Source: Candidatus Micrarchaeia archaeon (GTDB lineage Archaea; Micrarchaeota; Micrarchaeia; Micrarchaeales; Micrarchaeaceae). From it: a stretch of 54,705 bases of DNA. The number at the start of each line of letters is the position of its first letter. Positions within the stretch are counted from its first letter, which is position 1. The translations under genes were made by a program, and so were the position numbers. Positions 24,721-52,308 of the stretch are shown here, piece after piece. Below the pieces are notes generated by a model, which had not been told where the DNA came from, did not search any database, and worked only from the letters and a program-made list of their open reading frames with translations. The stretch spans positions 1-54,705 of the forward strand of contig JBMFTN010000001.1 of the NCBI GenBank assembly GCA_049966995.1, given 5' to 3'.

Positions 24721-27366
24721 ATGAAACCAGAAAGCAATAGGGCACAGATTGCGCTTGAATTTCTTATAGTCTATTCCTTTGTATTGGTTGTATTTATAAT
24801 ATTGTTTGTTTTAATAGCCTCGCAAAGAGCAGTAACGCTTACACAGCAAGAATACGAGCAACTTCAGCTGCAAGTACAGAATATAGCAATGTATATAGAT
24901 AACGCATATGCGGCAGGCAATGGCTACTCTGCGACGATTCCTATTGTAGGTTCCATAGGATCATTGCCTTATAATATATCTATATCAAGCGCAGGCGTTG
25001 TGAAAGGTAGCATAACTATAGGCAAGCAGGTCATAAATGCTTATGGCTTTAGCAATGTGAGGAATATTATTGTTAATGGAACTGCAATCGCATATGATAA
25101 CAATATTGGCTTGTATCAAATACCGATATACAAGGGCTTTATTACGCTATCAAACTCAAAAGGCCAGGTGTTTATAGATAAAAAACCACCAGATATGCTA
25201 TCGCTTTTAAGAACGATCAATATTCAAGTGCCATCTGATGTCAATGTTGCTGAATTTAATGGAGTTAACAGCACGATCATTGGAAATTTAAGCAATTACT
25301 TTTGGGGTAATAATTCATTTACCATTTCTGCTTGGGTGTATATAACCCCAAAAACAAACGGCCCGCTGATTGGAATCGCAAACACCACAAGTGAAAACGG
25401 TTTAAATGCCACTCTTATAAGTGCCAACGGACTAATTGTATATGGCTTCTTGCCAGGGTTTGATACACTTTTACCATATAAGCTGCACACTTCTGGTTGG
25501 GATATGCTAACACTTACATACAATGCATTAAGCTATGGCAATGTGACTTTCTTTGTGAATGGCCAAGAAGCAGGATCTATGATTGGAAAGTACAATACTG
25601 TAGGAAGAACTGATTACTGGATAACGAATGCCACGGCGAAAAGACCTGCAGGAGTTAACCACTACTTTACTGGAATGCTAGCGAATGTGCAGGCATATTA
25701 TGAAAGTTTAGACCCTGAGCAGGTTATGCAGCTTTACGAAGAAGGGATTAATGGCGCACCGATATCAGATAAAATAGTATCGTGGTGGCCACTGAATGGA
25801 AATACTAGAGATTATAGCCCTAATAATCACAATGCAAAAAGCCTTAATTTAACCTATGGAGATGTTGAAGGCATTCAATTGCATGCTTTAAGCCAAGGGG
25901 GTGCAGCTTCTGCAGGTTTACCTGTTGGAATCGTATCCAGCATTGGCTCTGTAAACGGGAATAGCAGCTTTGAAGCGGAGAGGACAAATAAAACTGGATT
26001 TGCAATGCTGTTTATTACTGCAAACTCTTTGAATTTTGGAAAAGGCATCATGAATATAACCATGTATAACGGCAATTCCACCATGGCAGAAAATCTAACA
26101 GGATGGTGGCCACTGAATGGCAATGCTTATGACTACAGTGGCTACGGCAATAATGGCACTGCTTATGGCATAGATTGGGTCAGCCCGCCAGCAAATCAGT
26201 CAAACTTTGAATCTGCACTATTCGGCCAAAAAAACAGCGTTTTGGGGCGTTTAAATATCACATCTTCGGGCTTTACAATATCCGCATGGATTGATGGTAA
26301 TACTTTAAGCCTTAATAGGAATATTTTTGAACTTTTTGACAACAAAACGAAGAATCACAATTTGCTTGCAATAGGCATCAATGCGTCAGGATACGCATAC
26401 ATAAGGTGGAGCAATATATTTAACACTACGCAGTTCGAGTATTCTGGTGGCAGCATAAAACCAGGGGAATGGTACTTAATAACGGGAGTTTGGAATGGAA
26501 ACAACAACACACTTGAACTTTATCTAGATGGCGCTTTGGTAGCAAAAGGACCTGGCAATGGCACCACACAAGCGTATATGAACTTATATAATATTGGAGG
26601 GCCTTACTCCACAATAAACAGCTTTGACGGCTTGATTAGCAATGTACAGTTATATAATAGAGCATTGTCGCAGAATCAAGTTTATGGTTTGTATAATGCA
26701 GGAATCGAATCTTTGCCTATTATGAATGAATTAATAGGATGGTGGCCTTTGCTTGGTACGCCAAATGACGCCATAGCTAACAGCACTATTATATTTGCTA
26801 ATTTAACATACCAAAACGTGGCACTAATACAAAGTGGCATTTCAAGAAGCAGAATTGCATACTTTAATGGCAGCGCTTATGTTAATATATCAAGTTCAAG
26901 CAGCATAACACCTACAAATACTATAAGTATGATGGGCTGGATTTACTTAACCAAACCAGTATCAGCTATAGCACAAAAGGAGGGAGCATATGGCATGGAT
27001 GTTGGCAATGATGGCATATCTCCAGGCACATTCAACGCTTATATCGGGGATAGCAAGGCAACATGCCAAAATTATCCATATAACCTATCAATAGACAAAT
27101 GGTATTTTGTTGGCTTCACGTATAATGGCACAAACATAGACACATATGTAAATGGGCAGCCTTACTGTTCTGAATATACGAGCTACAGCATTCCTTCTGG
27201 GAAAACACCACTTGCATTCGGGGGCCCTGGTGACACCGATGGCTATGTCAATGGCTACCTTTCTGATATGCAAATTTACAACACAGCACTTTCAGCTGAA
27301 GAGGTGCAAGCATTGTATGAGAATGGCCTGCCACCTATCAAGAGCATAAATATTACAATGGGGTAA
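24721..27366 (+). CDS. pilin-like protein (class III signal peptide) fused to three LamG/ConA-like lectin modules
   Basis: True start MKPESNRA|QIALEFLIVYSFVLVVFIILFVLIA is an archaeal prepilin motif, preceded by GGGAG. Three LamG C-terminal signatures are present: LANVQAYYESLDPEQVMQLYEEGI, ISNVQLYNRALSQNQVYGLYNAGI and LSDMQIYNTALSAEEVQALYENGL. Two of the three modules open with WWPL(N/L)G (WWPLNGNAYDYSGYGNNGT, WWPLLGTPND); the first module does not, and a further WWPLNGNTRD opening after it is not followed by a recognisable module. I counted at least about 30 N-x-S/T sequons by eye. Confidence 0.75.
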   Translation: MKPESNRAQIALEFLIVYSFVLVVFIILFVLIASQRAVTLTQQEYEQLQLQVQNIAMYIDNAYAAGNGYSATIPIVGSIGSLPYNISISSAGVVKGSITIGKQVINAYGFSNVRNIIVNGTAIAYDNNIGLYQIPIYKGFITLSNSKGQVFIDKKPPDMLSLLRTINIQVPSDVNVAEFNGVNSTIIGNLSNYFWGNNSFTISAWVYITPKTNGPLIGIANTTSENGLNATLISANGLIVYGFLPGFDTLLPYKLHTSGWDMLTLTYNALSYGNVTFFVNGQEAGSMIGKYNTVGRTDYWITNATAKRPAGVNHYFTGMLANVQAYYESLDPEQVMQLYEEGINGAPISDKIVSWWPLNGNTRDYSPNNHNAKSLNLTYGDVEGIQLHALSQGGAASAGLPVGIVSSIGSVNGNSSFEAERTNKTGFAMLFITANSLNFGKGIMNITMYNGNSTMAENLTGWWPLNGNAYDYSGYGNNGTAYGIDWVSPPANQSNFESALFGQKNSVLGRLNITSSGFTISAWIDGNTLSLNRNIFELFDNKTKNHNLLAIGINASGYAYIRWSNIFNTTQFEYSGGSIKPGEWYLITGVWNGNNNTLELYLDGALVAKGPGNGTTQAYMNLYNIGGPYSTINSFDGLISNVQLYNRALSQNQVYGLYNAGIESLPIMNELIGWWPLLGTPNDAIANSTIIFANLTYQNVALIQSGISRSRIAYFNGSAYVNISSSSSITPTNTISMMGWIYLTKPVSAIAQKEGAYGMDVGNDGISPGTFNAYIGDSKATCQNYPYNLSIDKWYFVGFTYNGTNIDTYVNGQPYCSEYTSYSIPSGKTPLAFGGPGDTDGYVNGYLSDMQIYNTALSAEEVQALYENGLPPIKSINITMG
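26104..26166 (+). repeat. 63-nt near-identical segment shared with 31939-32001 (LamG module start)
   Basis: TGGTGGCCACTGAATGG(C/T)AA(T/C)GCTTATGACTACAG(T/C)GGCTACGGCAATAATGGCACTGCTTAT has only three differences, all synonymous. The flanks diverge. Confidence 0.9.
26737..26768 (+). repeat. 32-nt perfect repeat shared with 29942-29973 (LamG module junction)
   Basis: GGATGGTGGCCTTTGCTTGGTACGCCAAATGA is identical in both genes and encodes GWWPLLGTPND. Confidence 0.9.
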
Positions 27367-27371
27367 CATAA

Positions 27372-27908
27372 ATGAAAGCACAATTTTGGAGTTTTGACGT
27401 GATTTTCGCTATTGTAATATTTGGTGTAGCAATAACAATAATTGCATTTACCTGGTACCAAATTAGCACTCAGCTTTCCCTATCTTATGGCAATGGCGCC
27501 GCCATAATGGAGCTGCAGGCTGATACACTAGCAAAAAGCCTGCTTTCTGAAGGTTATCCTTCAGACTGGGAAAGCCTGATTAATACCACCAACAGCAGCA
27601 CTTGGAAATATGTCAGCATTGGCATATTAAATAGAACGGGCATATCAATCAAGAAGCTTTATGCATTCATGTCTATGTCAAATTCAAACTATCAGGCAAC
27701 GAAGCAGGCTTTGGGAATAGGTTTTGACTATTTTATAGTAATAGAAAGCAAGCTTTACAATAACGGCATTAATATTACAATAGGCAGAAACCCTGCCAAG
27801 AATAATGCCCTTACTATATATGTTGAAAAACGCAGTAGCTTTATCAATGGGGTACCCGTAGAAATTAATATTTACCTTTGGACCCAAACACCTTTTGGTG
27901 TTGAATAG
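27372..27908 (+). CDS. small pilin-like protein (class III signal peptide)
   Basis: MKA|QFWSFDVIFAIVIFGVAITIIAF N-terminus followed by a globular domain of about 150 aa. It starts 5 nt after the preceding gene. Confidence 0.6.
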   Translation: MKAQFWSFDVIFAIVIFGVAITIIAFTWYQISTQLSLSYGNGAAIMELQADTLAKSLLSEGYPSDWESLINTTNSSTWKYVSIGILNRTGISIKKLYAFMSMSNSNYQATKQALGIGFDYFIVIESKLYNNGINITIGRNPAKNNALTIYVEKRSSFINGVPVEINIYLWTQTPFGVE

Positions 27909-27919
27909 AGTATGATGCA

Positions 27920-30148
27920 ATGAATAATCTAAAAGGCTTTATATTCACATTGGATGCTTTGTTTGCACTGATAATCGCAGCTGCTGGAATATCCATACTC
28001 CTTTATATACATCCCCTCACAAACGGAGGGTATTCTATACCTGTATCCGAGGCTTCAAGCATGCTTAACGGCTTACTCAACACAAATTTGCAATCTGTAT
28101 CATTACCGGGCTTATCAAATAATATTACATCGAACAACGCTTCTTTATTTGGATGGCCGCAATTTGGCAATTACGAAAATGAAACCGCATCAACAGCTTA
28201 TGGTCCAGAGACAACTTCAACACTTTTTTCCTTTAACACAGGCCGTTATCCCATATCTGATGTGCTTGCAGATAAAGGATTGGTAATAGTTACATATGGC
28301 GACAGCATTGTGGCGCTAAATGCAACAGATGGCAGAAAAATTTACAGTATAAATACTGGTTCTAACATAACTGGAATGCCCGCAACTTACATGAATGAAA
28401 TAATCTATGCGAATAGCACAGGTTTCTTGTGTGGCGCAAACATTAAAAATGGAACTATTGTATGGACAAGCAAGATTAGCGTACCGGTAGATACGCCAAT
28501 ACTCGTAGAAAATGGTTATGCCACTTTTGGCAGCTCTTATTTATTTTATCTTGTAAATCCTTTAAATGGTAGTGTAGTTTCCACAAACACGGTGAACCAG
28601 AAATTGACTGCAATGCCTCCAGTGTATGACAATGGAGAGTATATTGTTTCTGCTAGCGGCCCGCTGCCAACAACAAATTTTGTTTACGGGTTTGCACTTG
28701 AAGGCACGACACTGGTAAAGTTATGGAGCACTGAGTTGTCCACTCCGCATACAACTATTCCAATCATTGCAAATGGCAGGATTATTCTTGGCAGTGGCAG
28801 CAACCTGTATGACATAACAACTTCTGGCATCAAGAACTCTTCTGCTTCTTTAGACCTTCAGGTAAGCGGAATAGCATATAGCAATGGCTTTATATATGCT
28901 GAGACTAAGGATGAGATTTACTCTGTGCCATTAAATGCTTCTGGAGAACTCGGAATGCCTTTGCCAATACGCAACACACCGATCCAATCCATAAATGAAA
29001 CTCCAACGTTTGCTGATGGCAATATATATGTACTGATAAACGGTAGCATATTCCAATCATACAATATATCAAATAGGAACTTAATATTTAGCGTGAAGTT
29101 GCCTAGCGAATATGGATTGAATTCCCAAATATATAATATGGGTGATATTGTCATTGCATATGGCAATGCATACGTTTCAAGCGGGGATATGCTTTATGCT
29201 TTTGGCGGTTACATCACAGACCGTACAGCGCCGATACTTTATGCAATAGCAGAAATGTATCTTAACAAGCAAGGCGCTGAGGCAGACATTATATTGAATA
29301 GCACTGCTATTTCTCAAGATAGCGCTATGTTTATAAATGGTACATATGCGCCTTCTATTTCAATGGCATATTTTGATGGCAATTCAGCGATATATGAACT
29401 TGGTATACCGATAATAGCATATAATTATACAATAAGTGCGTGGTTCAAGCTGAATAATTCAACTTCTTCATCAGGGCCAAATGGAGGCGAATATCCCATA
29501 TTAACATTATACAATGCTACAAATAACGGCGGAATTGGAGGGGGCCAAACGATCAGCCTTGGTAATGTGTGGGCAGGCGGCAAATATGGAGAATTAAGCT
29601 TTAATGAAACAAACTCTAAATTCTGCAGCACAGGCTCAGGAACTGTAATACCTAACAAATGGTACAATGCAATTTTGTCTGTTTATGGGTATAAGAATTA
29701 TATTAATGTTATAATTTATCTAAATGGCAAGGAGGCGGTTTCATGCCATCTTACTTTAAGCCCTGCAAGCATTGAATATCCTGCATTGGCAATTGGAAGC
29801 AATCCTATTGGCAGGGAAACATTTGGACAAGGCTTTATATCGAATATACAACTTTACAATTCAACACTGCAGCCAAATCAAGCGAGCGCCCTTTATGCTT
29901 TAGGAATATTTTCCATACCGCCAGGCACTAACAAGCTGGTCGGATGGTGGCCTTTGCTTGGTACGCCAAATGATTATAGCCACCATGGCATTGTGGCAAT
30001 ACAAGATAATGTAAGCTATGAAGAAGGCAATGTTACGCCTGAAACGCTTTTGAATGCTTACGAAGTAAGCAAGGAAAGTGTGCCTCTAAGTATAGAGGTG
30101 AATGGTACTTATCATATATACAATGTAAGTGTTGTCATATGGCATTGA
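27920..30148 (+). CDS. pilin-like protein fused to PQQ-like beta-propeller and LamG module
   Basis: MNNLKG|FIFTLDALFALIIAAAGISILLY N-terminus. Repeated strand motifs such as GDSIVALNATDGRKIYS, GANIKNGTIVWTS, YLVNPLNGSVVST and GDMLYAFGG are typical of PQQ/BamB-like propellers. A C-terminal LamG signature (ISNIQLYNSTLQPNQASALYALGI) is followed by WWPLLGTPND. Confidence 0.7.
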   Translation: MNNLKGFIFTLDALFALIIAAAGISILLYIHPLTNGGYSIPVSEASSMLNGLLNTNLQSVSLPGLSNNITSNNASLFGWPQFGNYENETASTAYGPETTSTLFSFNTGRYPISDVLADKGLVIVTYGDSIVALNATDGRKIYSINTGSNITGMPATYMNEIIYANSTGFLCGANIKNGTIVWTSKISVPVDTPILVENGYATFGSSYLFYLVNPLNGSVVSTNTVNQKLTAMPPVYDNGEYIVSASGPLPTTNFVYGFALEGTTLVKLWSTELSTPHTTIPIIANGRIILGSGSNLYDITTSGIKNSSASLDLQVSGIAYSNGFIYAETKDEIYSVPLNASGELGMPLPIRNTPIQSINETPTFADGNIYVLINGSIFQSYNISNRNLIFSVKLPSEYGLNSQIYNMGDIVIAYGNAYVSSGDMLYAFGGYITDRTAPILYAIAEMYLNKQGAEADIILNSTAISQDSAMFINGTYAPSISMAYFDGNSAIYELGIPIIAYNYTISAWFKLNNSTSSSGPNGGEYPILTLYNATNNGGIGGGQTISLGNVWAGGKYGELSFNETNSKFCSTGSGTVIPNKWYNAILSVYGYKNYINVIIYLNGKEAVSCHLTLSPASIEYPALAIGSNPIGRETFGQGFISNIQLYNSTLQPNQASALYALGIFSIPPGTNKLVGWWPLLGTPNDYSHHGIVAIQDNVSYEEGNVTPETLLNAYEVSKESVPLSIEVNGTYHIYNVSVVIWH
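29942..29973 (+). repeat. partner copy of the 32-nt repeat at 26737-26768
   Basis: Direct comparison in the sequence. Confidence 0.9.
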
Positions 30149-32331
30149 AAAAAACAAAGGGGATATTACTCACGCTTGCCGTGATTGTATTGCTAGTATT
30201 GATTATAGGCGAGCTGATAATGTATGTAGTTCTTAATATAAGCTATAGCACCATAAGTTCTCAAACAGGATCCCTTTCTAGCACAGGGTATTTTATACAA
30301 GGCATAAAGAGTAGCGCGTATGCTTTTACATTGAGTAGTTTACACAGTGCACTTGCTGCTTTAATTAAATATGAGGCTACGCCTAGTTTGAGGCACTATC
30401 ATTTTATAACAAATGCACAGCAAGCCATAGAATCACTCATGTATAATGGCACCATATATGGAACAAATATGACTAGTTACATGAATAGTACAATGCTCGA
30501 ATTTGCATATATGGCTGAAGAACAGGCAAAAAACGAGTATCTTAATCTTACCATAGAAAATTCAAGCATTTATGTTTTCCAAACTGGGCCTTTCACGCTC
30601 GCTGCTCGATATACTGCATTAGGTATAGTTAATTCAAGCTATGGTAAATTTGTTTACCCTATAAGCGCAACTGCAAACATGTCTTTGAACGGGATGCCTG
30701 ATCTATATAGTATTGAAAGTGATAATCCATCAGTAATACATGCTTCTGATACATATCCGCAGGCATTTTTAGTTGGAGATGTTTTTGCAAGTTCTGCCAA
30801 TATATCAAATGAATCCTTTGTATACGGGACCGTGATAAAAATAAATGGAACAACATGCGCAAATGTACCACTCCAATTCAGGAACAATTACTTTATACTT
30901 GTAATGCAAAATGCCAAAAATGTAGATAAAGGCATGTGCGGTATGGGCGGGCTTATTACCTCGCAGATAAATAACACAAATTTTGGCAAACCATACCTTG
31001 TTTATCCTTCATCCGAATTTATATCCGTTTTTAACGAGATCCAAAATGGCACAAAATTGCTAATTTCCGGCAAAGGCAAATCATTGCTAAATATAACACA
31101 GATAAAAGAAGCTATACAGAATAATTATTATTATGCAACTCCTTATGCTCCTTCATACCTTGGATGGGCAAGCGGATCTCTTAATAGATCACCATTTGGC
31201 ATATTCTCATTTAGCGTGCTGCATAGGTACGTAGCACAGCTAAACACCAATGGTACAACAAAGCCAAAAGCATTTTTGAACATAAAAGGTGCTGTGCCTA
31301 GGTCATATCCAGAATTTTCTTATTCTGCTTGGTTCTATCCAACAAGCGCTGAGAATTATTCAAGAATAATAACTACAAGCAGCGGAAGCAGTGGTACTAT
31401 TGAGCTAGCCCTCTTAAATGCAAATCAGACAATACATACAACATCCGGTAATACAAGTACAGTAGGCCCTGTACCTGGAATAAGGATTATGGCTGTAAGT
31501 GGTGGCACAAGTAGCAGTAGCTCTACAACATCTACAACTACCACTATACCACCTCAGACTGTTTCAAGCGCAAATACTGTTTTAAAAACAGAGTATATAT
31601 ACGTAGACGGATTTGGAATAGATGGCTGGATTAATACCACTGCAAGAGTACCTATGAATAAATGGAATTTTATAGCTGCCACATACAATGGTAGTACGTA
31701 CACTGTTTACTTAGACAATATGACAATATGGAAAAAAGCTAATGTATCTCTTTCAGGCGCTTCAATGGGCAACATGCAGATAGGAGGCACTACTTCATCA
31801 TATAATATTGGCAACCAATTTTTTGGGGATATCGCCAATGTTCAATTTTATAATACATCATTGTCAAAGCAGCAAGAGTTTGAATTATTTATGGATGGCA
31901 TATCTGGCATACCGATATCCAACAGTTCTCTGGTAGGGTGGTGGCCACTGAATGGTAACGCTTATGACTACAGCGGCTACGGCAATAATGGCACTGCTTA
32001 TAATGTTACTTTTGGAGGCCTGAATGATTATGGTGGAGACGCACTCCTCTGGGGAACATTTTATTCGATACCACGTGAAGTTGAAGGGATTAACTGCAGG
32101 AACTTTACGAGCTGTGGTACATCACAAGCACAGAGTTTATATGTGGGCAACCTTACACTGTGGTCTAATGTGTCTGCCGTATTGAATGAGACCACAACGT
32201 TCAACTTGCAAAACGCAATTGTTTCAACAAGCTTCGATTATATAACGACAACTACTTCCTCTACAACATCCACAACGTCAACTACAACCACCACTACAAC
32301 TACAACAATAGCTAGTGGGGCGCCAAGTTAA
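30139..32331 (+). CDS. pilin-like/N-terminally anchored protein with LamG module and poly-Thr tracts
   Basis: MALKKTKG|ILLTLAVIVLLVLIIGELIM N-terminus. LamG signature IANVQFYNTSLSKQQEFELFMDGI is followed by WWPLNGNAYDYSGYGNNGTAY. An internal S/T tract (SSSSSTTSTTTT) and a C-terminal TTTTSSTTSTTSTTTTTTTTT tail are present. It overlaps the upstream gene by 10 nt (ATGGCATTGA). Confidence 0.65.
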   Translation: MALKKTKGILLTLAVIVLLVLIIGELIMYVVLNISYSTISSQTGSLSSTGYFIQGIKSSAYAFTLSSLHSALAALIKYEATPSLRHYHFITNAQQAIESLMYNGTIYGTNMTSYMNSTMLEFAYMAEEQAKNEYLNLTIENSSIYVFQTGPFTLAARYTALGIVNSSYGKFVYPISATANMSLNGMPDLYSIESDNPSVIHASDTYPQAFLVGDVFASSANISNESFVYGTVIKINGTTCANVPLQFRNNYFILVMQNAKNVDKGMCGMGGLITSQINNTNFGKPYLVYPSSEFISVFNEIQNGTKLLISGKGKSLLNITQIKEAIQNNYYYATPYAPSYLGWASGSLNRSPFGIFSFSVLHRYVAQLNTNGTTKPKAFLNIKGAVPRSYPEFSYSAWFYPTSAENYSRIITTSSGSSGTIELALLNANQTIHTTSGNTSTVGPVPGIRIMAVSGGTSSSSSTTSTTTTIPPQTVSSANTVLKTEYIYVDGFGIDGWINTTARVPMNKWNFIAATYNGSTYTVYLDNMTIWKKANVSLSGASMGNMQIGGTTSSYNIGNQFFGDIANVQFYNTSLSKQQEFELFMDGISGIPISNSSLVGWWPLNGNAYDYSGYGNNGTAYNVTFGGLNDYGGDALLWGTFYSIPREVEGINCRNFTSCGTSQAQSLYVGNLTLWSNVSAVLNETTTFNLQNAIVSTSFDYITTTTSSTTSTTSTTTTTTTTTIASGAPS
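31939..32001 (+). repeat. partner copy of the 63-nt segment at 26104-26166
   Basis: Direct comparison of the two stretches in the sequence. Confidence 0.9.
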
Positions 32332-32522
32332 AACCGCGTATTTTTAGCATGAGTTTTTCGCGTCTGTTTTGCCTTATCTAATCTATCTGCGTGGATCAAA
32401 GCGTTAGAATGCCAAACAAAATGAGCGGAATAAAGTAGATGCAATGTTTTAACGGAGGTTATAGCCAACTAAAAACAGGAAAAACACTGCGATTACATTA
32501 TTGATTGCAGGGTAATTTGCAC

Positions 32523-33515
32523 TTATATACCTGTGCCTATGCTGACAAATAACGACCCTATAACAGCTTCCATTACAAGAAAGATCACTATTCCAATAAT
32601 TATGAAAACAGGCAGGTATTTTATACCTTTTACAACTGAACCGGAGGAGATAGCACTCATTATGAGCGCAGAGAATCCTGTAATTATTATTATTGCAATT
32701 ATTGAAAAGTAGTAATATGTTGTAGGTGTTATCTTAGGGGGGCTAGGCCTTAGAAAAGAGAGGCCTGTTGTTGGCAATCCGCCAGGATTGCTTGAAAGGA
32801 TCCCCTTCCATACTGTATCAGTCACTACAATCATCTGGCTGGTCAACCCATAAAGGACAGGAGCTGCAACAAGCCCGGCAAAAGCTATGAATATGCTATA
32901 CATAAACAATTGACCGGCAACTTCCTTTTGTATGAGCTGCTGGTTTCTCATGTCCCTTGAAATCTGCTCTATAAGATCAGCCATTGCGCCACCAAACCTC
33001 AATGCTTCTATCATCATTCTTATTGCATGGGCAAGCTGAAAAGAACGGTAGCGCATTGCAAGCTTTTTAAGTGCATCTTCCAGGTTTTCTCCACCGAAAA
33101 CGCTTCTTGTCATCGCCTTAACATCGTCACTTAGAGGTACAAATTCTGGCCTTGCTGCAAGCAGAAGCGCTCTATCAAGGGCTATTCCACTTCTTAGATT
33201 TGCTGAGGTGATCTGCAGGAAATCAGGCAATTCTTGCTCCATCTTTGTCTTTCTTTTATCAATTAAGTATTCCAAAAACATGTATAATAGAACGACATAC
33301 AAAGCAGCCATTCCAAGGCCGGAAAAGAAGGATATTACTATTCCGTATTTGAGGTGATACATAACAAAAGATATAACTATAAGGATTGCAAAAGCGCCTA
33401 TTATTGTAATGCGCAAAAATTTCTCAACGCTTGTCTTTATACCTGCAAGATCTATCTCATTTGAAACTAGCAGTGCCACAGGTCTTGATACAAGCCTTTC
33501 AAATCTTATTTTCAT
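32523..33515 (-). CDS. type IV pilus/Tad-like platform membrane protein (single T2SSF domain, TadC/EpdK-like)
   Basis: T2SSF-domain pattern LPDFLQITSANLRSGIALDRAL...LEDALKKLA...MIEALRFGG, flanked by TM helices. It is the last gene of the ATPase operon. Confidence 0.8.
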   Translation of the reverse strand: MKIRFERLVSRPVALLVSNEIDLAGIKTSVEKFLRITIIGAFAILIVISFVMYHLKYGIVISFFSGLGMAALYVVLLYMFLEYLIDKRKTKMEQELPDFLQITSANLRSGIALDRALLLAARPEFVPLSDDVKAMTRSVFGGENLEDALKKLAMRYRSFQLAHAIRMMIEALRFGGAMADLIEQISRDMRNQQLIQKEVAGQLFMYSIFIAFAGLVAAPVLYGLTSQMIVVTDTVWKGILSSNPGGLPTTGLSFLRPSPPKITPTTYYYFSIIAIIIITGFSALIMSAISSGSVVKGIKYLPVFIIIGIVIFLVMEAVIGSLFVSIGTGI

Positions 33516-33519
33516 GCTA

Positions 33520-34620
33520 TCACATACTAAATACAGGCCTAGAACTCCTTATCATGGCCAGGAAGATTATCTGCAGAATCAACAGGAATACAAGAACAAA
33601 TGCTAGTAAAACTGTCGTCACGCTTATTATTGATATGAATGTTGTTAGTATTGTAACCACAGCTATACCCATGCTGGGCAGTATGACTCCAAAAAGCATG
33701 TAGAACATCGCAATTGCATTAAGTCTCTGGCCGTATCTTCTAAGTTCTATTATGCGCTCCTGGGATATCTGGTCAATCATGCTCTGCAAAGCAGAGACCA
33801 CGTCCGCGCCGGCTTTTATGCTTACTGAAGCTTGCAGCATTATCCTCCTGAATGAAACACTCTTTGTTTCTGCCACTGCATCATCAATTGCTTTTTCTAA
33901 AGGCTCTCCAAGCTGAACCCTGCTCACTATGCGTGCAAACTCCTTGCTTGCTTCGCCGTAACCTGTGCTGACAGAGACTATTGCATCGAAGAGAGGCATT
34001 CCAGAACGCAATGATATAATCATATCTCTAGCTGCAAACAGTATATCGCGCTCAACATTTCTAGAATCTGCAATGCCCCTTCTTGTCGGATAATTTAAGA
34101 ACATATTGAATAAGATCTTAAAGATTACAAAACCCAGAAGTATGGCAAACAAAGCGCTTGCTGGAATTGACATTTTAAGGTCTAGAAAAAGTGCAAATAT
34201 GATAACAGCCAATAGGATACTTGAGGACAACGCCGCGTAAAACATCCTTTTTACAAATTCATAAATAGTCCCTTTTATATGATGTTCTGACACCGCAAGG
34301 TCCAACCCTTTGCGCTTTGCACCTACTCCCTCTAAATATAGCCTAAATCTGCTAGGCTTACTACCCTTTTGCGGCACATTTTGTTTTTGATACTGGCCAG
34401 CAGTTTGGGCATTTGGAATTGCTTCTTGGTACTGCGGTGCATTTGATGGACCAATTGAAGTTTCATTATACTGCATTGTACTTTGCTGGACGGTACTTTG
34501 GCTTGAAGGTATATTTGGGGCTTTTGGCTTCCTGAATGAGAAAAGGCCAGGCTTGGGCTCTAGCTCTATTATTTCATTTCCTACTTTTATTGTACGCTTT
34601 TTCTTGCCGAACAACATCAA
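33520..34620 (-). CDS. type IV pilus/Tad-like platform membrane protein (single T2SSF domain, TadB/EpdJ-like) with Q-rich N-terminal extension
   Basis: DMIISLRSGMPLFDAIVSV...LGEPLEKAIDD...ASVSIKAGAD is a T2SSF domain. The Gln/Pro-rich cytoplasmic N-terminus of about 90 aa (residues ~35-90 low-complexity) has no recognised domain. Confidence 0.8.
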   Translation of the reverse strand: MMLFGKKKRTIKVGNEIIELEPKPGLFSFRKPKAPNIPSSQSTVQQSTMQYNETSIGPSNAPQYQEAIPNAQTAGQYQKQNVPQKGSKPSRFRLYLEGVGAKRKGLDLAVSEHHIKGTIYEFVKRMFYAALSSSILLAVIIFALFLDLKMSIPASALFAILLGFVIFKILFNMFLNYPTRRGIADSRNVERDILFAARDMIISLRSGMPLFDAIVSVSTGYGEASKEFARIVSRVQLGEPLEKAIDDAVAETKSVSFRRIMLQASVSIKAGADVVSALQSMIDQISQERIIELRRYGQRLNAIAMFYMLFGVILPSMGIAVVTILTTFISIISVTTVLLAFVLVFLLILQIIFLAMIRSSRPVFSM

Positions 34621-35330
34621 TTCACCTTATGCAAAAGAGAGAGCGCTTCGCTGAGTCTCTGGTCCCTTAAATCAAATAAGGACTTCTCAAGCTCGCTCTT
34701 AGGCACTAGCTTGTTCTGTTTTCTTAGATCTGAAAGCATTTGGTCAAGCCCATAAAGCTCTTCTTCTACTATTATGATATGCTCGCTATCAAATACGTTT
34801 TCCTTTAGGCCTTCTATTATGCGCTCAAGCTCTGCAATCTGATCTGCAAGAGTGAGGTTTGGAAGTACTAGTTCGCTTATGTTGACGCGCTTTATCTTAT
34901 AGCTTGGCTTTCTTGCAGCAGCACCAAGTTTCTTTATCAGGGATCCGAGTTCTAGCTTTGCCTTTTTGTTTTCTATTTGAGGCTGTACTGCTTGTGGCTG
35001 TGCTGCAGGCACATTCTCTGGCGGGTTAACATTCTGCACAGGCACTTCTACGGTCTGTGCTGCTCCAACTTTCTGCTGTGAATACGATATCTGCTCCAAT
35101 CCAGAGGTTATCAAGTGCGGCGGCTTCTGTTTTTCTCTTATTAGGTACTCACCCTTTCCCTTACTCTCTATACTGTTGATAATTTGCAAAAGGCTTTGAT
35201 ATGGCGTACTTGGAGCGCTTGTGGAATTTAGTATTGGGCTAATATCGACATAGCTTACGTCTGGAACTTTGACACCATTTTCTATGTCTTTGATCACATC
35301 CAGCATACTTTTGTAATCCATATTAAACAC
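34617..35330 (-). CDS. uncharacterised soluble pilus-operon protein (P/Q-rich linker, C-terminal helical domain)
   Basis: 237-aa ORF translationally coupled (4-nt overlap) between the ATPase and TadB-like genes. No TM and no motif I can name. Confidence 0.5.
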   Translation of the reverse strand: MFNMDYKSMLDVIKDIENGVKVPDVSYVDISPILNSTSAPSTPYQSLLQIINSIESKGKGEYLIREKQKPPHLITSGLEQISYSQQKVGAAQTVEVPVQNVNPPENVPAAQPQAVQPQIENKKAKLELGSLIKKLGAAARKPSYKIKRVNISELVLPNLTLADQIAELERIIEGLKENVFDSEHIIIVEEELYGLDQMLSDLRKQNKLVPKSELEKSLFDLRDQRLSEALSLLHKVN

Positions 35331-35338
35331 TCAATCCA

Positions 35339-36877
35339 TCAGCTGAAAAGGCTTTTGTCATATTTAACATCATCATTGACAATATCTAATATTCTTTGCT
35401 TATGTTTATAATAATTTGCAATTACAAGCCCTGCATCATTTACCTCTGTTACATTGTTCTTTACCATCCAGTTTAGTATTTTGCTCTTTTCGTTTATTTC
35501 ATCATTTATTTCGCTTCTTGTAAGGCCCCCATATAGGTTTAAGGTCTCCATGAGCCTGCTCATCTCGTGTATATGAGAGAAGGTGTCGCTGCGCATGTCC
35601 CACTTGTATAGTATGTCAACATCACCATCCCGGAGTACTTCCCCGAATTCAAGCACGCGCCTTATCCCTTTACTTCGATGCCTAAAAAGCACAACAACTG
35701 CACCGAGGGCATTAAGCATTATCTTTGGTATATTAATAGGAGGATTTGTCATTCTCACTATAGTGTCTTGTGCATTGTCTGCATGGACTGTACCATATAC
35801 CGCATGACCTGTGTGTATGGCCTCGAATAAAGTCTCGGCATCCTTCTGCGACCTTATTTCTCCGATGAGCACTATGTCTGGTCTTTGCCTAAGCGCATTC
35901 ACCATCAGATCATACAATGTTACTTCACCTTTGCCTTCTGGGTTTGCCTGACGGCTAAGCATCGGCACCCACTGCAAAAATGAGGGCAGGGTCAGCTCTC
36001 TAGTTTCTTCTATTGATATTACCCTCCTGCTTGCGGGGAAAAATATGCTTGAAGCATTAAGGAAACTTGTCTTCCCGCTAGCAGTGCCTCCGGAAAACAG
36101 CATGCTTATTTCGTATTGTATTGAAAGCCATACAAGCGCTGCAAGCTCAGGGTCGATGGAGTGATTTTTTATTAGGGCAGGCATTGTCCATGGATTCTTA
36201 GAAAATTTTCTTATTGTAATTGTATTTCCTGATTGCGAAACAGGAAACAGCGTGGAGTTTGACCTAGAACCGTCTGGAAGCTCTGCATCCATCAAAGGGG
36301 ACAGGTTGTTTATTTCCCTGCCTATTCTGCGCCCTATCTGCTCTGACTGCTCGTATATTTCCTCTTCGCTAGAAGGTTTTATATTGGTCTTGCACCAGCC
36401 GTATATTTTATGGAAAACATATATTGGGCTTTTTGAGCCGTTTACGGTAATTTCTTCGAGGTTCTCATCTGCTATCAATCCTTCAAGATCTCCTAGGCCA
36501 AGCATCATGTTCAGTATGTATGATATAAGTATCCTTTTTGTTTCTCCGCTTGTGTTAGGTAAATACTTGTCTATAAGGGTATTGCTTGCTGCTATATACT
36601 TGTTGTTTAGCTCTTCCAAGTACTCCTTGTCTTCTATCCTGGTTGGATCTGCTGGAACCATTGACATAAGCTCTCTTCTGAATGAAAGAAGCAGGAGCTT
36701 TGTTGCTTCGCCTATGCCCGGGTATGTCATGTTGTACAAAGGCACAAAATCAGTGCCGCGAGTAAGCAGCACGTGTACCCGCATACCGTGCGCATCTAAG
36801 TTGTATTCTGCGAGAACTTCCTCTTTTTCATCATCAATTTTTTTTGCTGGTTCAGGCATCTTATCAGTCATTTGCAA
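35339..36877 (-). CDS. type IV pilus assembly ATPase (FlaI/ArlI/PilB/VirB11 superfamily)
   Basis: Walker A GGTASGKTS, Asp box, Walker B PDIVLIGEIR and His box TGHAVYGTVHA. Size and N-terminal domain are as in archaeal FlaI/EpdL-type ATPases. Confidence 0.9.
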   Translation of the reverse strand: MQMTDKMPEPAKKIDDEKEEVLAEYNLDAHGMRVHVLLTRGTDFVPLYNMTYPGIGEATKLLLLSFRRELMSMVPADPTRIEDKEYLEELNNKYIAASNTLIDKYLPNTSGETKRILISYILNMMLGLGDLEGLIADENLEEITVNGSKSPIYVFHKIYGWCKTNIKPSSEEEIYEQSEQIGRRIGREINNLSPLMDAELPDGSRSNSTLFPVSQSGNTITIRKFSKNPWTMPALIKNHSIDPELAALVWLSIQYEISMLFSGGTASGKTSFLNASSIFFPASRRVISIEETRELTLPSFLQWVPMLSRQANPEGKGEVTLYDLMVNALRQRPDIVLIGEIRSQKDAETLFEAIHTGHAVYGTVHADNAQDTIVRMTNPPINIPKIMLNALGAVVVLFRHRSKGIRRVLEFGEVLRDGDVDILYKWDMRSDTFSHIHEMSRLMETLNLYGGLTRSEINDEINEKSKILNWMVKNNVTEVNDAGLVIANYYKHKQRILDIVNDDVKYDKSLFS

Positions 36878-38143
36878 TTATTTAAATTTCTTAGACATAT
36901 CATCAATATCTTCTTTTATCTTTTTTATTTTTCCTTTTGATTTTTTACTGCCCTCTGATATATTTTTAAGCCTTGATGATTTTTCGGCAAATGAATTTTT
37001 GGGCAGCCTCTCCAGCGCTTTTAGCTGGTTTGACAATTCGGCAACATCGCGCTTTGCTCCTTCGACTTGATTTTTTATGTCGTCAAATTGGCTTTTCAGA
37101 TCGCGCAATTTGCTGTCTATCATGGACACTTCGCCAAAAGAATTCTTCAACTCGTTTATTTTTGCTATGAGCTGCTTTGATGTTGCATCTATCTGCACTT
37201 TGCTGCTATTTAGTGTATTGTAAACCTTTTGATACATGTCGTTGAATTCAGATTTTTCCATGTTAAGCATACGCAATGCGCCTGCCCTTTGGGCCCTGAA
37301 TTCCTTGAGCTCAGAACCTGCAGCCTTGACTTCTGCACTTCGCTCCTGCATTGCCTTAATAATGCTTTCAAGTTCAAGATTGCTTGTTTTTAGTTGATTT
37401 ACTACGTTTTGGCCTTTTTCGCTTGCTTGCTTCTTCAGTGTTTCTGCCTGAATTGCGATGTTCTTGCTTAAGATCTTAAAGGATTCGCTTGTGCTAGTTT
37501 CTATGCTACGGATGGCTTCCCTCGCCTCTTCTGCTGCTTTGAGTATATTAGAAATTTTGGTATTGCTTTCTGCTATTGCCCTGTCAAAGCCCGTAGAGCT
37601 TATTGAATCAAGCCTATTGCTTAAAGCTTCAATGCGCTTGCTTATTGAACTGTTTGTTTCTTCTGCCTTTTTTATTATAGCATCGAGCCGTTTGTTGCTT
37701 GAATCTGCTATTTCGTTGAATTTGTTTATTTGAGAAAGCAAGGCTTCAACACCAGGCAGCGATGTCTTATAAAGCATTTCGAGTGAATCCAAATTGACAT
37801 TTATGTTCTTTAGCTCGTTTGAAAAGCCTTCTAAAGTTGCGGACTGTGATGACAGGTCAGAACTTAGCACATTTTTTTGTTCTTCTAGTTTCTTTTCAAC
37901 TGCGCCGAGATCTTCCCTGCCCATTGGCATAATTTCAAGATACATCTTTCCTATTTCATAACTTACTTTTAATATGCCGCCACTCTCCAGGACTTTTGCC
38001 CACGCTTCTACTACTTTTGGATCAATTCCCAAAGTTAAACTCACACTATTCAAATCCATTTTTCCTTTTGATTTTAATAGATCTATCAAAGAGTCTATAG
38101 TAGTTTTTGTCTCAACATTTTCAGCGTTCTCCATCTCGGCCAC
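36878..38143 (-). CDS. uncharacterised protein: N-terminal wHTH-like domain plus ~340-aa coiled coil
   Basis: The first gene of the ATPase operon; its stop codon abuts the ATPase start codon. The N-terminus (TIDSLIDLLKSKGKMDLNSVSLTLGIDPKVVEAWAKVLESGGILKV) resembles a winged helix. The rest is heptad-rich with E/K/S/L/N. Confidence 0.55.
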   Translation of the reverse strand: MAEMENAENVETKTTIDSLIDLLKSKGKMDLNSVSLTLGIDPKVVEAWAKVLESGGILKVSYEIGKMYLEIMPMGREDLGAVEKKLEEQKNVLSSDLSSQSATLEGFSNELKNINVNLDSLEMLYKTSLPGVEALLSQINKFNEIADSSNKRLDAIIKKAEETNSSISKRIEALSNRLDSISSTGFDRAIAESNTKISNILKAAEEAREAIRSIETSTSESFKILSKNIAIQAETLKKQASEKGQNVVNQLKTSNLELESIIKAMQERSAEVKAAGSELKEFRAQRAGALRMLNMEKSEFNDMYQKVYNTLNSSKVQIDATSKQLIAKINELKNSFGEVSMIDSKLRDLKSQFDDIKNQVEGAKRDVAELSNQLKALERLPKNSFAEKSSRLKNISEGSKKSKGKIKKIKEDIDDMSKKFK

Positions 38144-38193
38144 AATAACTATTTAACTAGAAATGTTTTTAACTATTGCCTTGCGGTTCTATG

Positions 38194-38907
38194 TTATAGT
38201 ATGTTCCTGTAAAACATAGAAAATAAAAGAGCAATGAATATCATTATAATTATTGAAATCAACGGAATCCCGGCAAAAAGGAACATTAGTAGGAATATCG
38301 TGGCCATTGTTGCAATATATATCCGCTTGTCCCACATGAGCACTTTGCTGCCGTCAAGCGGAGGTATAGGGAGCATATTGAAAAATGCTAAGAGTATGCT
38401 TATGAATATCGTAAAGGAAAGCATAACTGAGATGTAGCTGTTTTTCAATGGATTAAGGATTAAAAGCAGCAGCAAAGAAGCAATAAAAACAGCAAAGTTG
38501 GTAAGCGGACCTGCTATTGAAACAATACCTTCTTCCTTGCGTGTAAATTTTGACGTATAAATCATTGTCGCTCCAGGTATGCCGAGTAGAAAGCCGAAGA
38601 ACCCTGTTGCTAAGGTTATCATAAGACCCATATAAGAAGTTCTGAAAGCAGCTATGGCGCCATAATGCTCAGCTACAAACTTGTGCATGAGTTCGTGAAA
38701 TACGAAACTTAGTGTTACGCCAAAAGCGACAATGGGCAGCAGGTATATAAAATATGAAGCAAATGCGGCAAAATTTGACATTCCTTCTGCCCCGCCGCAA
38801 AGGGTAAGGGTAAATGCAGTAATTAGAACCAAATCCGCTATTATGATGTCTTTTATTTCCTTCTTTTCAGAGATGTTTTCCCTAAGCATAAATATTATTT
38901 TTAACAA
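38194..38907 (-). CDS. site-2 protease family (M50) intramembrane zinc metalloprotease
   Basis: HELMHKF (HExxH) within a TM helix, and NMLPIPPLDGSKV (the NxxPxxxLDG motif). Confidence 0.8.
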   Translation of the reverse strand: MLKIIFMLRENISEKKEIKDIIIADLVLITAFTLTLCGGAEGMSNFAAFASYFIYLLPIVAFGVTLSFVFHELMHKFVAEHYGAIAAFRTSYMGLMITLATGFFGFLLGIPGATMIYTSKFTRKEEGIVSIAGPLTNFAVFIASLLLLLILNPLKNSYISVMLSFTIFISILLAFFNMLPIPPLDGSKVLMWDKRIYIATMATIFLLMFLFAGIPLISIIIMIFIALLFSMFYRNIL

Positions 38908-39108: not shown

Positions 39109-39549
39109 GTGTTATTAATTAGGTGTTTAACTGTGGTAAAAAATATAAACAACCACGTGATTGTTTGCGGCTTTGGCATTCTAGGGCGTAAAATAGTGGA
39201 TGTGCTGGCTGAACACGGAGTCAAGTTTTTGATTGTTGATATTGACCCTAAAGTTATGAGTATCATTAAAGAATATGGCTATGAGTATGTAGAAGGAGAC
39301 GCCACGCGATCTAAAGTGCTAAGAGAAGCAAACATTGAGAATGCGAAGGCTATAGCAATCGCACTTGATGATGATGCAAAAAACCTTTTTATTGTGTTAA
39401 CGGCAAGGGATCTCAATAAGGATATATTTATAGCCGCCCGCGCAAATGACGAATTTGTGCGTGGCAAGCTCATCGAAGCCGGAGCGGATTATGTAGTTAT
39501 GCCGCAAAAGGCAGCAAGCAGAGAGATTGTAGATGAGCTCTTAAAGTGA
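39109..39549 (+). CDS. soluble TrkA-N/KTN (RCK) NAD-binding domain protein
   Basis: Rossmann motif VIVCGFGILGRKIV, then DID....EGDAT and AIAIALDDD. The start is uncertain (GTG 39109 or GTG 39133). Confidence 0.8.
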   Translation: MLLIRCLTVVKNINNHVIVCGFGILGRKIVDVLAEHGVKFLIVDIDPKVMSIIKEYGYEYVEGDATRSKVLREANIENAKAIAIALDDDAKNLFIVLTARDLNKDIFIAARANDEFVRGKLIEAGADYVVMPQKAASREIVDELLK

Positions 39550-39553
39550 GTTT

Positions 39554-50397: not shown

Positions 50398-51840
50398 ATG
50401 AAAAACGCGCAGATGAAGGCGCAAAACGCCATTGAATTCCTAAGCACTTACGCTTTTATGATAATGGTTATTGTTGTGGCCTTGCTGCTTCTCTTTATGT
50501 TCTTCAATATACCTAAATCAGCGATACCTGGTTCCTGCAACTTTTATAGCGGCTTCAACTGCAAAGATGAGATATATTCAAATACCAGCAGTGGCTCCGA
50601 GCTTCTTATTGAGGCTACTGACATGATGCCAGGGACTGTAAACACGAGCAGTTTCAGCGCCTACCTTAATTATATGAATAGTACTTCTGGAAGCTGCACG
50701 CCAAGCTTTGCGGTAGATGGCCAAAGCATATACTGCGTGGCGCATTTTAACACAAAGGCAAGATTAGGACAGATGTATACGGGCACCTTTAAGATAAAGG
50801 CAAACTACTGTACTGCAAGCGTTTCTAGCCTATACAACGGAAGCTGCCCGCAGAACAGCAATTACACATTTGCCGGATACATAAGCCTGCAGTCTTCGCC
50901 TATGCCAGCACTGAGCTTAAACTGCAAGCAAAAAACAATACCAATAATAATTACAAACTCTCAAAAAAGTGCTGCACCCGCGCACTTCCAACAGATGCTA
51001 CGCTTTGATCCAAGCAATTTTTCCTCTTGCGAAAGGCCTGACCTTGGGAACATAAGGTTTTACTACAAAAATACTGAGCTTTACAGCTGGTGCGAATCAA
51101 ACTGCACAAGCGCATCTAAAGGCAATGCGATATTCTGGGTCAAGCTGCCTGTGGCAGTGCCATCAGGAAAAAATATTACAATAGACATGACATTCCTTCC
51201 TTACCAGGTAGATTATGATGGAGTTTTTGCAGGAGAAGCGCCGCAATTAAGCAGCAAGTATGCGGAATATGATAATGGTGCCAACATCTTCAATTTCTAT
51301 GACGACTTTAGGGGGGATGCACTAAGCGGAAAATGGGTATACAACGCGAATTTGAATGGCACACTTGTTATCAACAATGGGATGACTTATGTGCAATCCT
51401 CAAAGGCTTATGCTCCTTTCATTTACACCAATACCAATTTCTCCAAAGGCATTTTTGAAGCTTATGGAAGCATATCAGGCTTTAGCGGCTCAGGCATTGA
51501 TGTGTTTGGATTGGGAAACAGCACGGCAAGAATGGCAATAGGCTATGCAGGAGGGAATTATGGCATTATAATGGAAAATGCCACGCAGTCTTATGTGGTG
51601 GGAGGGCTTTCCAGCGGCATGCATGTGTGGCAGCTTTACGTGCCTCCTTCCCTGTCTTACATATCCGCTTCTCAGGATTACGGATATAGCATAAACACGA
51701 CAAGCAATATGCCTTTGGTGCAGATGCCTATCATGTTCATGTCCCAAAGCAATGCAACATTTGGGCCGTTTTACTGGGTGCGCGCGCGAGACATGCCTCC
51801 AAGAGGGGTTATGCCAAGTGCGGTATTTGTAACTAAATAA
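50398..51840 (+). CDS. pilin-like protein (class III signal peptide) with DUF2341 + ConA-like lectin module
   Basis: MKNAQMKA|QNAIEFLSTYAFMIMVIVVALLLLFMF N-terminus. DUF2341-like GNIRFYYKNTELYSWCES....AIFWVKLPVAVPSGKNITIDMTF, then FNFYDDFRGDALSGKWVY, paralleling the core of the giant protein. The start is trimmed from the track's 50350. Confidence 0.65.
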   Translation: MKNAQMKAQNAIEFLSTYAFMIMVIVVALLLLFMFFNIPKSAIPGSCNFYSGFNCKDEIYSNTSSGSELLIEATDMMPGTVNTSSFSAYLNYMNSTSGSCTPSFAVDGQSIYCVAHFNTKARLGQMYTGTFKIKANYCTASVSSLYNGSCPQNSNYTFAGYISLQSSPMPALSLNCKQKTIPIIITNSQKSAAPAHFQQMLRFDPSNFSSCERPDLGNIRFYYKNTELYSWCESNCTSASKGNAIFWVKLPVAVPSGKNITIDMTFLPYQVDYDGVFAGEAPQLSSKYAEYDNGANIFNFYDDFRGDALSGKWVYNANLNGTLVINNGMTYVQSSKAYAPFIYTNTNFSKGIFEAYGSISGFSGSGIDVFGLGNSTARMAIGYAGGNYGIIMENATQSYVVGGLSSGMHVWQLYVPPSLSYISASQDYGYSINTTSNMPLVQMPIMFMSQSNATFGPFYWVRARDMPPRGVMPSAVFVTK

Positions 51841-52201: not shown

Positions 52202-52308
52202 GCCCCAGTAGCTCAGTGGTATGCTTAAGCACACTAAAGAGCGTCTGCATGGTAACCATGCAGAGACCATAAAGCAGAAGGTCGAGGGTTCAATTCCCTC
52301 CTGGGGCT
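52202..52308 (+). tRNA. tRNA-Thr(GGU) with two BHB introns: D-loop (52221-52237, 17 nt) and canonical 37/38 (52255-52272, 18 nt)
   Basis: Hand fold: acceptor GCCCCAG/CTGGGGC and T arm GAGGG-TTCAATT-CCCTC. The D region folds as GCTC-AGTG-[GTA]-TGC TTAA GCA-CACT-[AAA]-GAGC, and excision gives the D arm GCTC-AGTGGTA-GAGC. The anticodon region folds as TCTGC-ATGG-[TAA]-...-CCAT-[AAA]-GCAGA, and excision gives the loop ATGGTAA. The mature length is 72 nt. Confidence 0.85.

Follow-up and report, generated by a model that had tools for sequence, protein, structure and literature searches.

In Candidatus Mancarchaeum acidiphilum Mia14, a member of the Micrarchaeota, locus MIA14_0170-0177 encodes a CpaF-family ATPase (0170), two TadC proteins (0172 and 0173) and secreted components, and was put in the Methanococci/Methanothermobacteria/Thermococci group of type IV pili (T4P) (Golyshina et al. 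2017, PMC5498576). The same study found no archaellum genes in Mia14, placed a single FlaK-like peptidase elsewhere in the genome (MIA14_0570), listed stand-alone pilins, and linked LamG proteins and their expansion to T4P loci in Micrarchaeota. Two contiguous single-T2SSF platform genes derived from gene fission define the Epd-like/Tad clade (Denise et al. 2019, PMC6668835); among euryarchaeal loci, clade 1 typically has two tadC-like genes, and such pairs are also common in clade 2 (Makarova et al. 2016, PMC4858521). Here we analysed five minus-strand genes in a 54,705-nucleotide (nt) stretch of contig JBMFTN010000001.1 (Candidatus Micrarchaeia archaeon, GenBank assembly GCA_049966995.1), referred to below as the window, which an initial annotation made from the sequence alone had described as a pilus-assembly operon. 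In order of transcription they encode a soluble protein of 421 amino acids (aa), cc421; a secretion-superfamily ATPase; a soluble 237-aa protein, g237; and two platform proteins, F1 and F2 (Table 1). We consider it likely that the five genes specify the motor, cytoplasmic and membrane-borne, that assembles an archaeal T4P of Tad/Epd-like type (clade 1 of Makarova et al., CpaF family) in Micrarchaeota. What the sequences show directly is which genes are present, the domains they encode, the affinity of the ATPase, and how the genes are conserved and linked. The locus is a known machine type already catalogued in Micrarchaeota; what is new is two undescribed protein families, cc421 and g237, as constant neighbours of the pilus ATPase.

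The ATPase contains a T2SSE domain (Pfam PF00437, 4e-32) with a Walker A motif (GGTASGKTS), a Walker B/Asp box (DIVLIGEIR) and a His box (TGHAVYGTVHA), all as first read from the sequence; these are the marks of the T2SSE/VirB11 superfamily. Its relationships were assessed in an alignment with afGspE (2OAP), Sulfolobus acidocaldarius FlaI and Caulobacter CpaF that left 301 ungapped columns. With these three PDB references, 500 out of 500 four-point bootstraps grouped the window ATPase with CpaF against FlaI and afGspE. A two-residue insertion (PNPEG/PNLEG) is common to Micrarchaeota ATPases (TRQPNPEGKGEVT) and CpaF (TRPPNLEGSGAVT) and is missing from FlaI and afGspE. Identity of the ATPase across Micrarchaeota is 50–84%, and orthologues annotated by the Prokaryotic Genome Annotation Pipeline carry names such as ‘CpaF family’ and ‘TadA’. 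We conclude that the ATPase is not an archaellum ArlI and, judging by these sequence comparisons, lies on the CpaF side of the quartet. In loci L041, L042, L063 and L088 the ATPase appeared as two separate BLAST segments, which points to a frameshift, a misassembly or an ATPase gene in two parts in some metagenome-assembled genomes (MAGs).

F1 and F2 each matched Pfam T2SSF (PF00482) once, in agreement with the earlier reading of two separate single-domain platform proteins. F1 aligns to positions 13–248 of the 555-position ArlJ profile, that is, to its N-terminal half; the ArlJ model gave 20.7 bits against a cut-off of 550. Pairwise comparison of F1 and F2 revealed no similarity (E 0.89), from which we take them to be ancient paralogues. 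Together with the pairing of the ATPase with CpaF and the insertion they have in common, the split platform points to a Tad/Epd system, as had been proposed. The novelty of the split was overrated: it is a published hallmark of the Epd-like/Tad group (PMC6668835) and is common in clades 1 and 2 (PMC4858521). The cytoplasmic N-terminus of F1 consists of a conserved peptide of ~25 aa (KKK.R.I.V.G..IEL.PKP) followed by a linker of ~20 to 130 aa. An N-terminal extension had been described as Q-rich and about 90 aa long; the extension is real, and in the window sequence it measures ~120 aa with only 8% Q.

The arrangement of these genes resembles that of Mia14, in which the ATPase gene is followed by an unlisted gene (0171), two TadC genes and then secreted/pilin-like components; orthology between Mia14 and the window is judged here from layout, not from alignment. 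The genes that correspond by position to g237 (0171) and cc421 (upstream of 0170) do not appear in the Mia14 table and are not discussed (PMC5498576), nor do the supplements give gene-by-gene data on 0169 or 0171. As in the Epd system of Methanococcus maripaludis (EpdJ/EpdK/EpdL) and clade 1, the locus has two contiguous single-T2SSF genes with a single ATPase of CpaF affinity, class III proteins of large adhesin type (DUF2341, also in the window), and major pilins away from the motor genes. The order differs: in Epd/Tad loci platform genes are followed by the ATPase and a secondary ATPase (PMC6668835), whereas here it is ATPase-g237-platform-platform. Unlike Epd, the window has neither a FleN/TadZ/FlaH-type ATPase nor EppA. 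Two extra soluble proteins also distinguish the locus from clade 1 as given in the consulted part of the table of arCOG families of Makarova et al. (PMC4858521), which holds pilins, surface proteins and membrane proteins and no soluble helical protein. Bacterial Tad/Flp systems (CpaF/TadA, TadB, TadC, TadZ) share with the locus the ATPase affinity, the PNxEG insertion, the split platform and a single bifunctional-type ATPase with no PilT paralogue. They differ in that the archaeal envelope calls for no secretin/RcpA, no TadZ is found in the window, the pilin-like proteins far exceed the size of Flp, and cc421 and g237 are without a Tad counterpart.

The five reading frames occupy the positions that the initial annotation gave them. 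Its junctions (0 nt, 8 nt, a 4-nt overlap and 4 nt) hold for the maximal open reading frames (ORFs) and not for the probable ATG starts. GTG or TTG is the first codon in four of the five maximal ORFs, with ATG codons 1–3 codons further in, and gene-called database versions of cc421, the ATPase and g237 are 418, 510 and 234 aa long. With the ATG starts of Table 1, the first two junctions are gaps of 6 nt and 17 nt, the g237 stop overlaps the F1 start by 1 nt (TGATG), and F1 and F2 are 4 nt apart. Among relatives the medians are 12, 8, –1 and 4 nt, so tight packing is a conserved property; the F1–F2 gap is at most 30 nt in 48/49 loci. Upstream of cc421 the sequence reads TTAAAAA and TTAAATA within 30 nt of the start, and the A/T-rich spacer there is probably the promoter of the five-gene unit. 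The motor operon faces the neighbouring pilin-like cassette tail to tail across 191 nt, as originally described. Oligo-T tracts in this spacer (TTTTT twice past the cassette stop on the plus strand; TGTTTTTCCTGTTTTT past the F2 stop on the minus strand) are probably the terminators of the cassette and the motor operon.

We then looked at the distribution of the five genes. The window has a G+C content of ~39% and carries archaeal markers (split RpoB, RpoA'/A'', eIF2-gamma, S6e, Cdc48, Alba and Hjc), and close homologues of the studied genes belong without exception to Micrarchaeota (DPANN), Ca. Micrarchaeum sp. A_DKE and ARMAN-1 among them. In the A_DKE genome (NZ_CP060530.1) the locus is found at ~404–425 kb. 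Loci were collected from 50 named genomes through the g237 motif, from 31 metagenome contigs through cc421 motifs, and through ATPase-seeded and protein-identity look-ups; these three independent seedings gave 80 non-duplicate loci, with homology confirmed by profiles. In every assessable locus cc421 lies immediately upstream of the ATPase (72/72) and g237 immediately downstream (73/73). F1 and F2 come next in order in 60/61. The check that the initial annotation had called for, conservation of gene order in relatives, showed all five genes in order in 58/59 loci spanning the module, which excludes a chance arrangement. The exception, L052 (MAG MAS4.bin50, 7059–10429), has a tight cc421-ATPase-g237 trio without platform genes: downstream are an aldo/keto reductase, a K+ channel and Sua5, with no T2SSF within ~9 kb, and upstream is a DNA ligase. 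Its platform genes must be elsewhere or lost. Median identity to the window is 68% for the ATPase, 62% for F2, 53% for F1, 36% for g237 and 28% for cc421. Thus, two fast-evolving soluble proteins are tied to a slow-evolving motor, and to its ATPase more tightly than the platform is. Some contigs with this typical locus (L016, L018, L021 and L033), as well as protein P0050, go under the names ‘Methanothrix sp.’, ‘Candidatus Marsarchaeota’ or ‘Baltobacteraceae’ in public MAGs; since their loci run colinear with those of Micrarchaeota, errors of binning or labelling are the most likely cause.

Both accessory proteins had been called unassignable, and they stayed so after comparison with Pfam, NCBIfam and PDB profiles, AlphaFold modelling with Foldseek, and an exhaustive profile search. 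No transmembrane (TM) segment was predicted in either. In its AlphaFold model (predicted local distance difference test, pLDDT, 83) cc421 begins with three helices and a beta-hairpin, a winged helix at residues 16–71 (domain limits ~14–72), and continues into six long helices, in line with the winged helix-turn-helix (wHTH) and coiled-coil make-up first suggested. The helical hairpins/coiled coil extend over ~350 aa and end in a Lys-rich basic C-terminal tail. Foldseek related the wHTH to ArsR/MarR/Sso10a-type domains (probability 1.0), while its other matches (MCP, Rad50, spike HR1, apolipoprotein) were generic long-helix noise with root-mean-square deviations >25 Å and were set aside. Against Pfam, NCBIfam and PDB sequence profiles cc421 gave nothing specific beyond coiled-coil noise and a weak NCBIfam match to the Sul12a wHTH (1.5e-3). 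Most of its 22 invariant columns fall in the N-terminal domain. In 12 of 13 members that domain is acidic to neutral, with a pI of 4.5–6.0 and a net charge between –4 and 0. Of the 11 members with a C-terminal tail, 10 have one of net charge +3 to +9.

In g237, two short acidic N-terminal helices with the repeat Y..LL..I..IE are followed by a variable disordered linker, a basic helix (~119–150) and an acidic three-helix bundle (161–236; AlphaFold pLDDT >90) with a near-invariant motif, LVLPxLSxxDQxxELERIIEGL. The protein had been described as soluble and P/Q-rich; the former is borne out, and the latter applies only to the linker (~58–118). An alignment of 22 members has 12 invariant columns, all in the C-terminal part. 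Searches of g237 against Pfam, NCBIfam and PDB sequences found no match, and Foldseek found none in the PDB at E ≤ 0.001. The exhaustive search over 1.84 billion representatives returned 303 clusters (259 below 1e-10), in which the labelled members are all Micrarchaeota ‘hypothetical protein’ entries. Kinship between cc421 and g237 was rejected by profile–profile comparison (probability 0.3%), so they are unrelated families. Analysis of the basic segments as membrane-targeting amphipathic helices yielded hydrophobic moments that were moderate and did not stand out, and no weight was put on it.

On the interpretation of the five genes as a Tad/Epd-like T4P motor, a hexameric ATPase would dock beneath a platform of two single-T2SSF membrane proteins, F1 and F2, themselves presumed to descend, through an ancient fission, from a two-domain gene of FlaJ/PilC type. 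ATP hydrolysis would push processed pilins from the membrane into the filament. The four pilin-like LamG/beta-propeller proteins encoded by the convergent cassette would be among the substrates, in the role of minor pilins or adhesins, and a major pilin and a GxGD prepilin peptidase would be encoded elsewhere in the genome and act in trans, as in Mia14. The most likely role of the two accessory proteins is that of a motor scaffold or adaptor, because they lack TM segments, their genes are packed tightly against that of the ATPase, and features suited to interaction are conserved in them (an acidic winged helix and basic tails, a bundle face with invariant residues, and short tethered motifs). 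They would bind the motor around the ATPase as functional analogues of TadZ/FleN, ArlH/ArlX/ArlCDE or PilM/GspL, possibly by way of the tethered motifs (the N-terminal helices of g237 and the N-terminal peptide of F1) and complementary acidic and basic surfaces.

Proteins of this general description are found in other archaeal motors. UpsX and AapX are motor accessories of Sulfolobales, and ArlX has a TM anchor. Like ArlX, ArlH, ArlCDE, arCOG07564 and UpsX/AapX, the two proteins are soluble or peripheral, often coiled-coil, encoded beside the ATPase and lineage-restricted; this is a likeness of position and composition, with no sequence or fold match to anything in the PDB behind it. ArlX forms a ring that surrounds ArlI/ArlH (PMC5019145); cc421 differs from ArlX in having no TM anchor and in carrying a winged helix. 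The product of arCOG07564, from halobacterial subclade 4F, is the only coiled-coil cytoplasmic component in the survey of Makarova et al. and was proposed to be a regulatory subunit (PMC4858521). A bolder version, in which cc421, g237 and the F1 N-terminal peptide form a cytoplasmic scaffold that replaces TadZ/FleN/ArlH-type ATPases and the LamG-loaded machine builds the pili-like connections of ARMAN/Micrarchaeota cells to Thermoplasmatales hosts, seems to us speculative and rather unlikely.

Several observations weigh against a Tad/Epd-like pilus motor. By raw score the ATPase is closer to afGspE (226 bits) and FlaI (198 bits) than to CpaF (158 bits) among its PDB matches. Its placement in the Tad/Epd clade by sequence is supported, not complete, as it draws on three PDB references and one indel, with no Epd (clade 1) or clade 4 archaeal references. 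Mapping of F2 onto the C-terminal half of the ArlJ profile failed. Neither a secondary ATPase nor a major pilin nor a prepilin peptidase was found in the window: its ORFs and the Pfam-annotated loci of relatives have no ParA/MinD or KaiC-type domain (TadZ/FleN arCOG00589, FlaH), no EppA-type peptidase or short (~60–70 aa) major pilin of the Epd-like/Tad kind was detected in the window, and, as the initial annotation had stated, no GxGD peptidase is present, with no Peptidase_A24 match in any scanned window ORF. The secondary ATPase may be encoded elsewhere in the genome. No analogue by structure or sequence was found (Foldseek) that backs a specific role of cc421 or g237. Finally, none of the public sequencing runs checked for this stretch contains it, and the paper on the A_DKE co-culture does not mention pili.

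Table 1. Coordinates of the five-gene module and neighbouring features in the window
Feature	Position	Strand	Details
cc421, soluble, first gene of module	36878..38143	-	421 aa; probable ATG 38134 (418 aa)
Secretion-superfamily hexameric ATPase, T2SSE/VirB11-like, CpaF/TadA-type affinity	35339..36877	-	512 aa; probable ATG 36871 (510 aa)
g237, soluble	34617..35330	-	237 aa; probable ATG 35321 (234 aa)
F1, one T2SSF domain, TadC-like	33520..34620	-	366 aa; probable ATG 34617; Pfam T2SSF 3e-17; TM segments
F2, one T2SSF domain, TadB-like by position	32523..33515	-	330 aa; Pfam T2SSF 6e-15
Probable promoter region of five-gene unit	38144..38193	-	50-nt A/T-rich spacer upstream of cc421
Convergent intergenic region	32332..32522	.	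191 nt; oligo-T tracts on both strands
Convergent four-gene cassette	24721..32331	+	881, 178, 742 and 730 aa
Short M50 (site-2-type) zinc metalloprotease	38194-38907	-	50 nt upstream of cc421, same strand
Three tandem TrkA_N (RCK) genes	39109-41049	+	hydrophobic N-terminal segments in second and third
514-aa protein	41081-42625	-	N-terminal membrane segment; Gly/Ala/Ser-rich repeat (GSGSANSNVPLKTP twice); Lys/Glu-rich helical C-terminal part
2009-aa protein	42670-48699	-	N-terminal signal-like segment; weak DUF2341 match only
DUF2341 protein	50398..51840	+	class III N-terminus MKAQ|NAIEFL; Pfam DUF2341 1e-7

The convergent cassette bears on what the motor handles. All four of its proteins have class III (prepilin-type) N-termini (MKPESNRAQ|IALEFL, MKAQ|FWSFDV, LKG|FIFTLDA and KTKG|ILLTLA), and three of them, of 730–881 aa, have large LamG and/or beta-propeller ectodomains (Laminin_G_3 down to 6e-53; PQQ/beta-propeller matches). 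A convergent LamG gene follows F2 in 35/40 assessable loci. We presume from their sequences that the cassette proteins are minor pilins or adhesins handled by the motor. The genes are tightly packed (27366–27920, with 5-nt and 11-nt gaps; a 10-nt overlap of the 742-aa and 730-aa genes at 30139–30148), and a 921-aa maximal ORF almost certainly starts at ATG 24721, giving the 881-aa protein. A Taf system was rejected for the cassette: the TafC model gave 57.6 bits against a cut-off of 410, and only a common LamG-type domain is shared with subunits of Tat-fimbriae.

With such proteins next to it, the motor could instead drive a bindosome- or pseudopilus-like display system that anchors the four LamG/propeller proteins and makes no long pilus, like Sulfolobus Bas with its sugar-binding proteins. 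The class III N-termini and the size of the ectodomains fit this proposal, as do the failure to find a small class III ORF (a major pilin) in the 54.7-kb window and the published tie between LamG expansion and T4P loci in Micrarchaeota (PMC5498576). However, the ATPase scored 117 bits with the BasE model (NF053672) against a cut-off of 1000, the small major pilins of clade 1 are typically stand-alone genes elsewhere in the genome (PMC4858521), Mia14 has stand-alone pilins, and ARMAN cells have been described with connections that resemble pili (cited in PMC5498576). We regard a display system as possible, though unlikely.

A regulatory function has to be considered for cc421 alone, as a DNA-binding transcription regulator or an Sso10a-like chromatin protein with wHTH and coiled coil that controls the operon. 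The fold match of its winged helix, the Sul12a similarity and its place at the head of the unit are compatible with this, and T4P-associated regulators are common in archaea (PMC4858521). Yet the winged-helix domain is acidic to neutral in 12 of 13 members, where a basic DNA-contacting surface would be expected of such a regulator, and some 350 aa of long helices come after it. The gene is moreover packed against that of the ATPase (median gap 12 nt) and accompanies it in every assessable locus, L052 included. These features make a regulator quite improbable.

Small Micrarchaeota genomes are generally highly syntenic, and cc421 and g237 might simply be passenger genes whose adjacency to the ATPase reflects this; unrelated neighbours (the three TrkA_N genes and M50) are indeed syntenic in most loci as well. 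The rearranged loci speak otherwise. M50/TrkA are gone from the neighbourhood in 14/62 loci, cc421 and g237 never. Eight genomes have different genes upstream of cc421, for example a PadR-ABC-CARDB cluster, which places the breakpoint exactly at the module start, between M50 and cc421. Breakpoints thus fall outside the five genes; inside, junctions of –1 to 12 nt are conserved, and the trio survives without platform genes. We therefore give the passenger explanation very little credence. An ordinary archaellum (ArlI/ArlJ) operon, suggested by the label ‘flagellar protein FlaI’ that Joint Genome Institute pipelines put on many orthologues and by ArlI being the best NCBIfam match of the ATPase, can practically be dismissed: the ArlI equivalog (NF058587) gave 263 bits against a cut-off of 550, the ATPase falls outside the FlaI and afGspE pair, the platform is split with no fused ArlJ, the window ORFs contain no archaellin, ArlF/G, ArlH (KaiC), ArlCDE or ArlX domains, and Mia14 has no archaellum genes (PMC5498576), all of which upholds the initial view of a pilus-assembly operon.

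The membrane protease next to cc421 is an M50 by Pfam, as had been noted, and it adjoins cc421 in 48/62 assessable loci. M50 as the missing pilin peptidase found no support, given that it adjoins in only that share of loci and is separated from the module where rearrangements have occurred; probably it neighbours the pilus genes through synteny and is no component of the pilus. The TrkA_N genes are divergent from M50 in most Micrarchaeota loci, and in L057 they are inverted and abut cc421. A Pfam scan of the 514-aa protein gave no match. The 2009-aa protein may be a surface adhesin; relatives L001 and L003 have proteins of >1400 to >2200 aa in the same position. Adhesins with DUF2341 characterise clade 1 loci (PMC4858521), and the DUF2341 protein of the window may be a tip adhesin of this pilus supplied in trans. 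Further along, Rfam reported a 107-nt tRNA at 52202–52308 (plus strand) that ARAGORN did not; this is probably an archaeal tRNA with an intron, and directly beside it lies a fragment of a DDE transposase (52354–52770, minus strand).

Micrarchaeota are obligate episymbionts with genomes of ~1 Mb, and we know of no established mechanism for their attachment to hosts. The five-gene locus, among the most conserved surface-machine loci of the group, leaves the general picture of type IV pili unchanged, since both its split platform and this type of operon had been published before. It offers one more case of how motors of the Tad/Epd type take on accessory subunits specific to a lineage. A co-culture exists for one carrier of the locus, Ca. 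Micrarchaeum A_DKE (L026), and the two unannotated, obligatory neighbours of the ATPase are concrete candidates for scaffolding or regulation of the motor.

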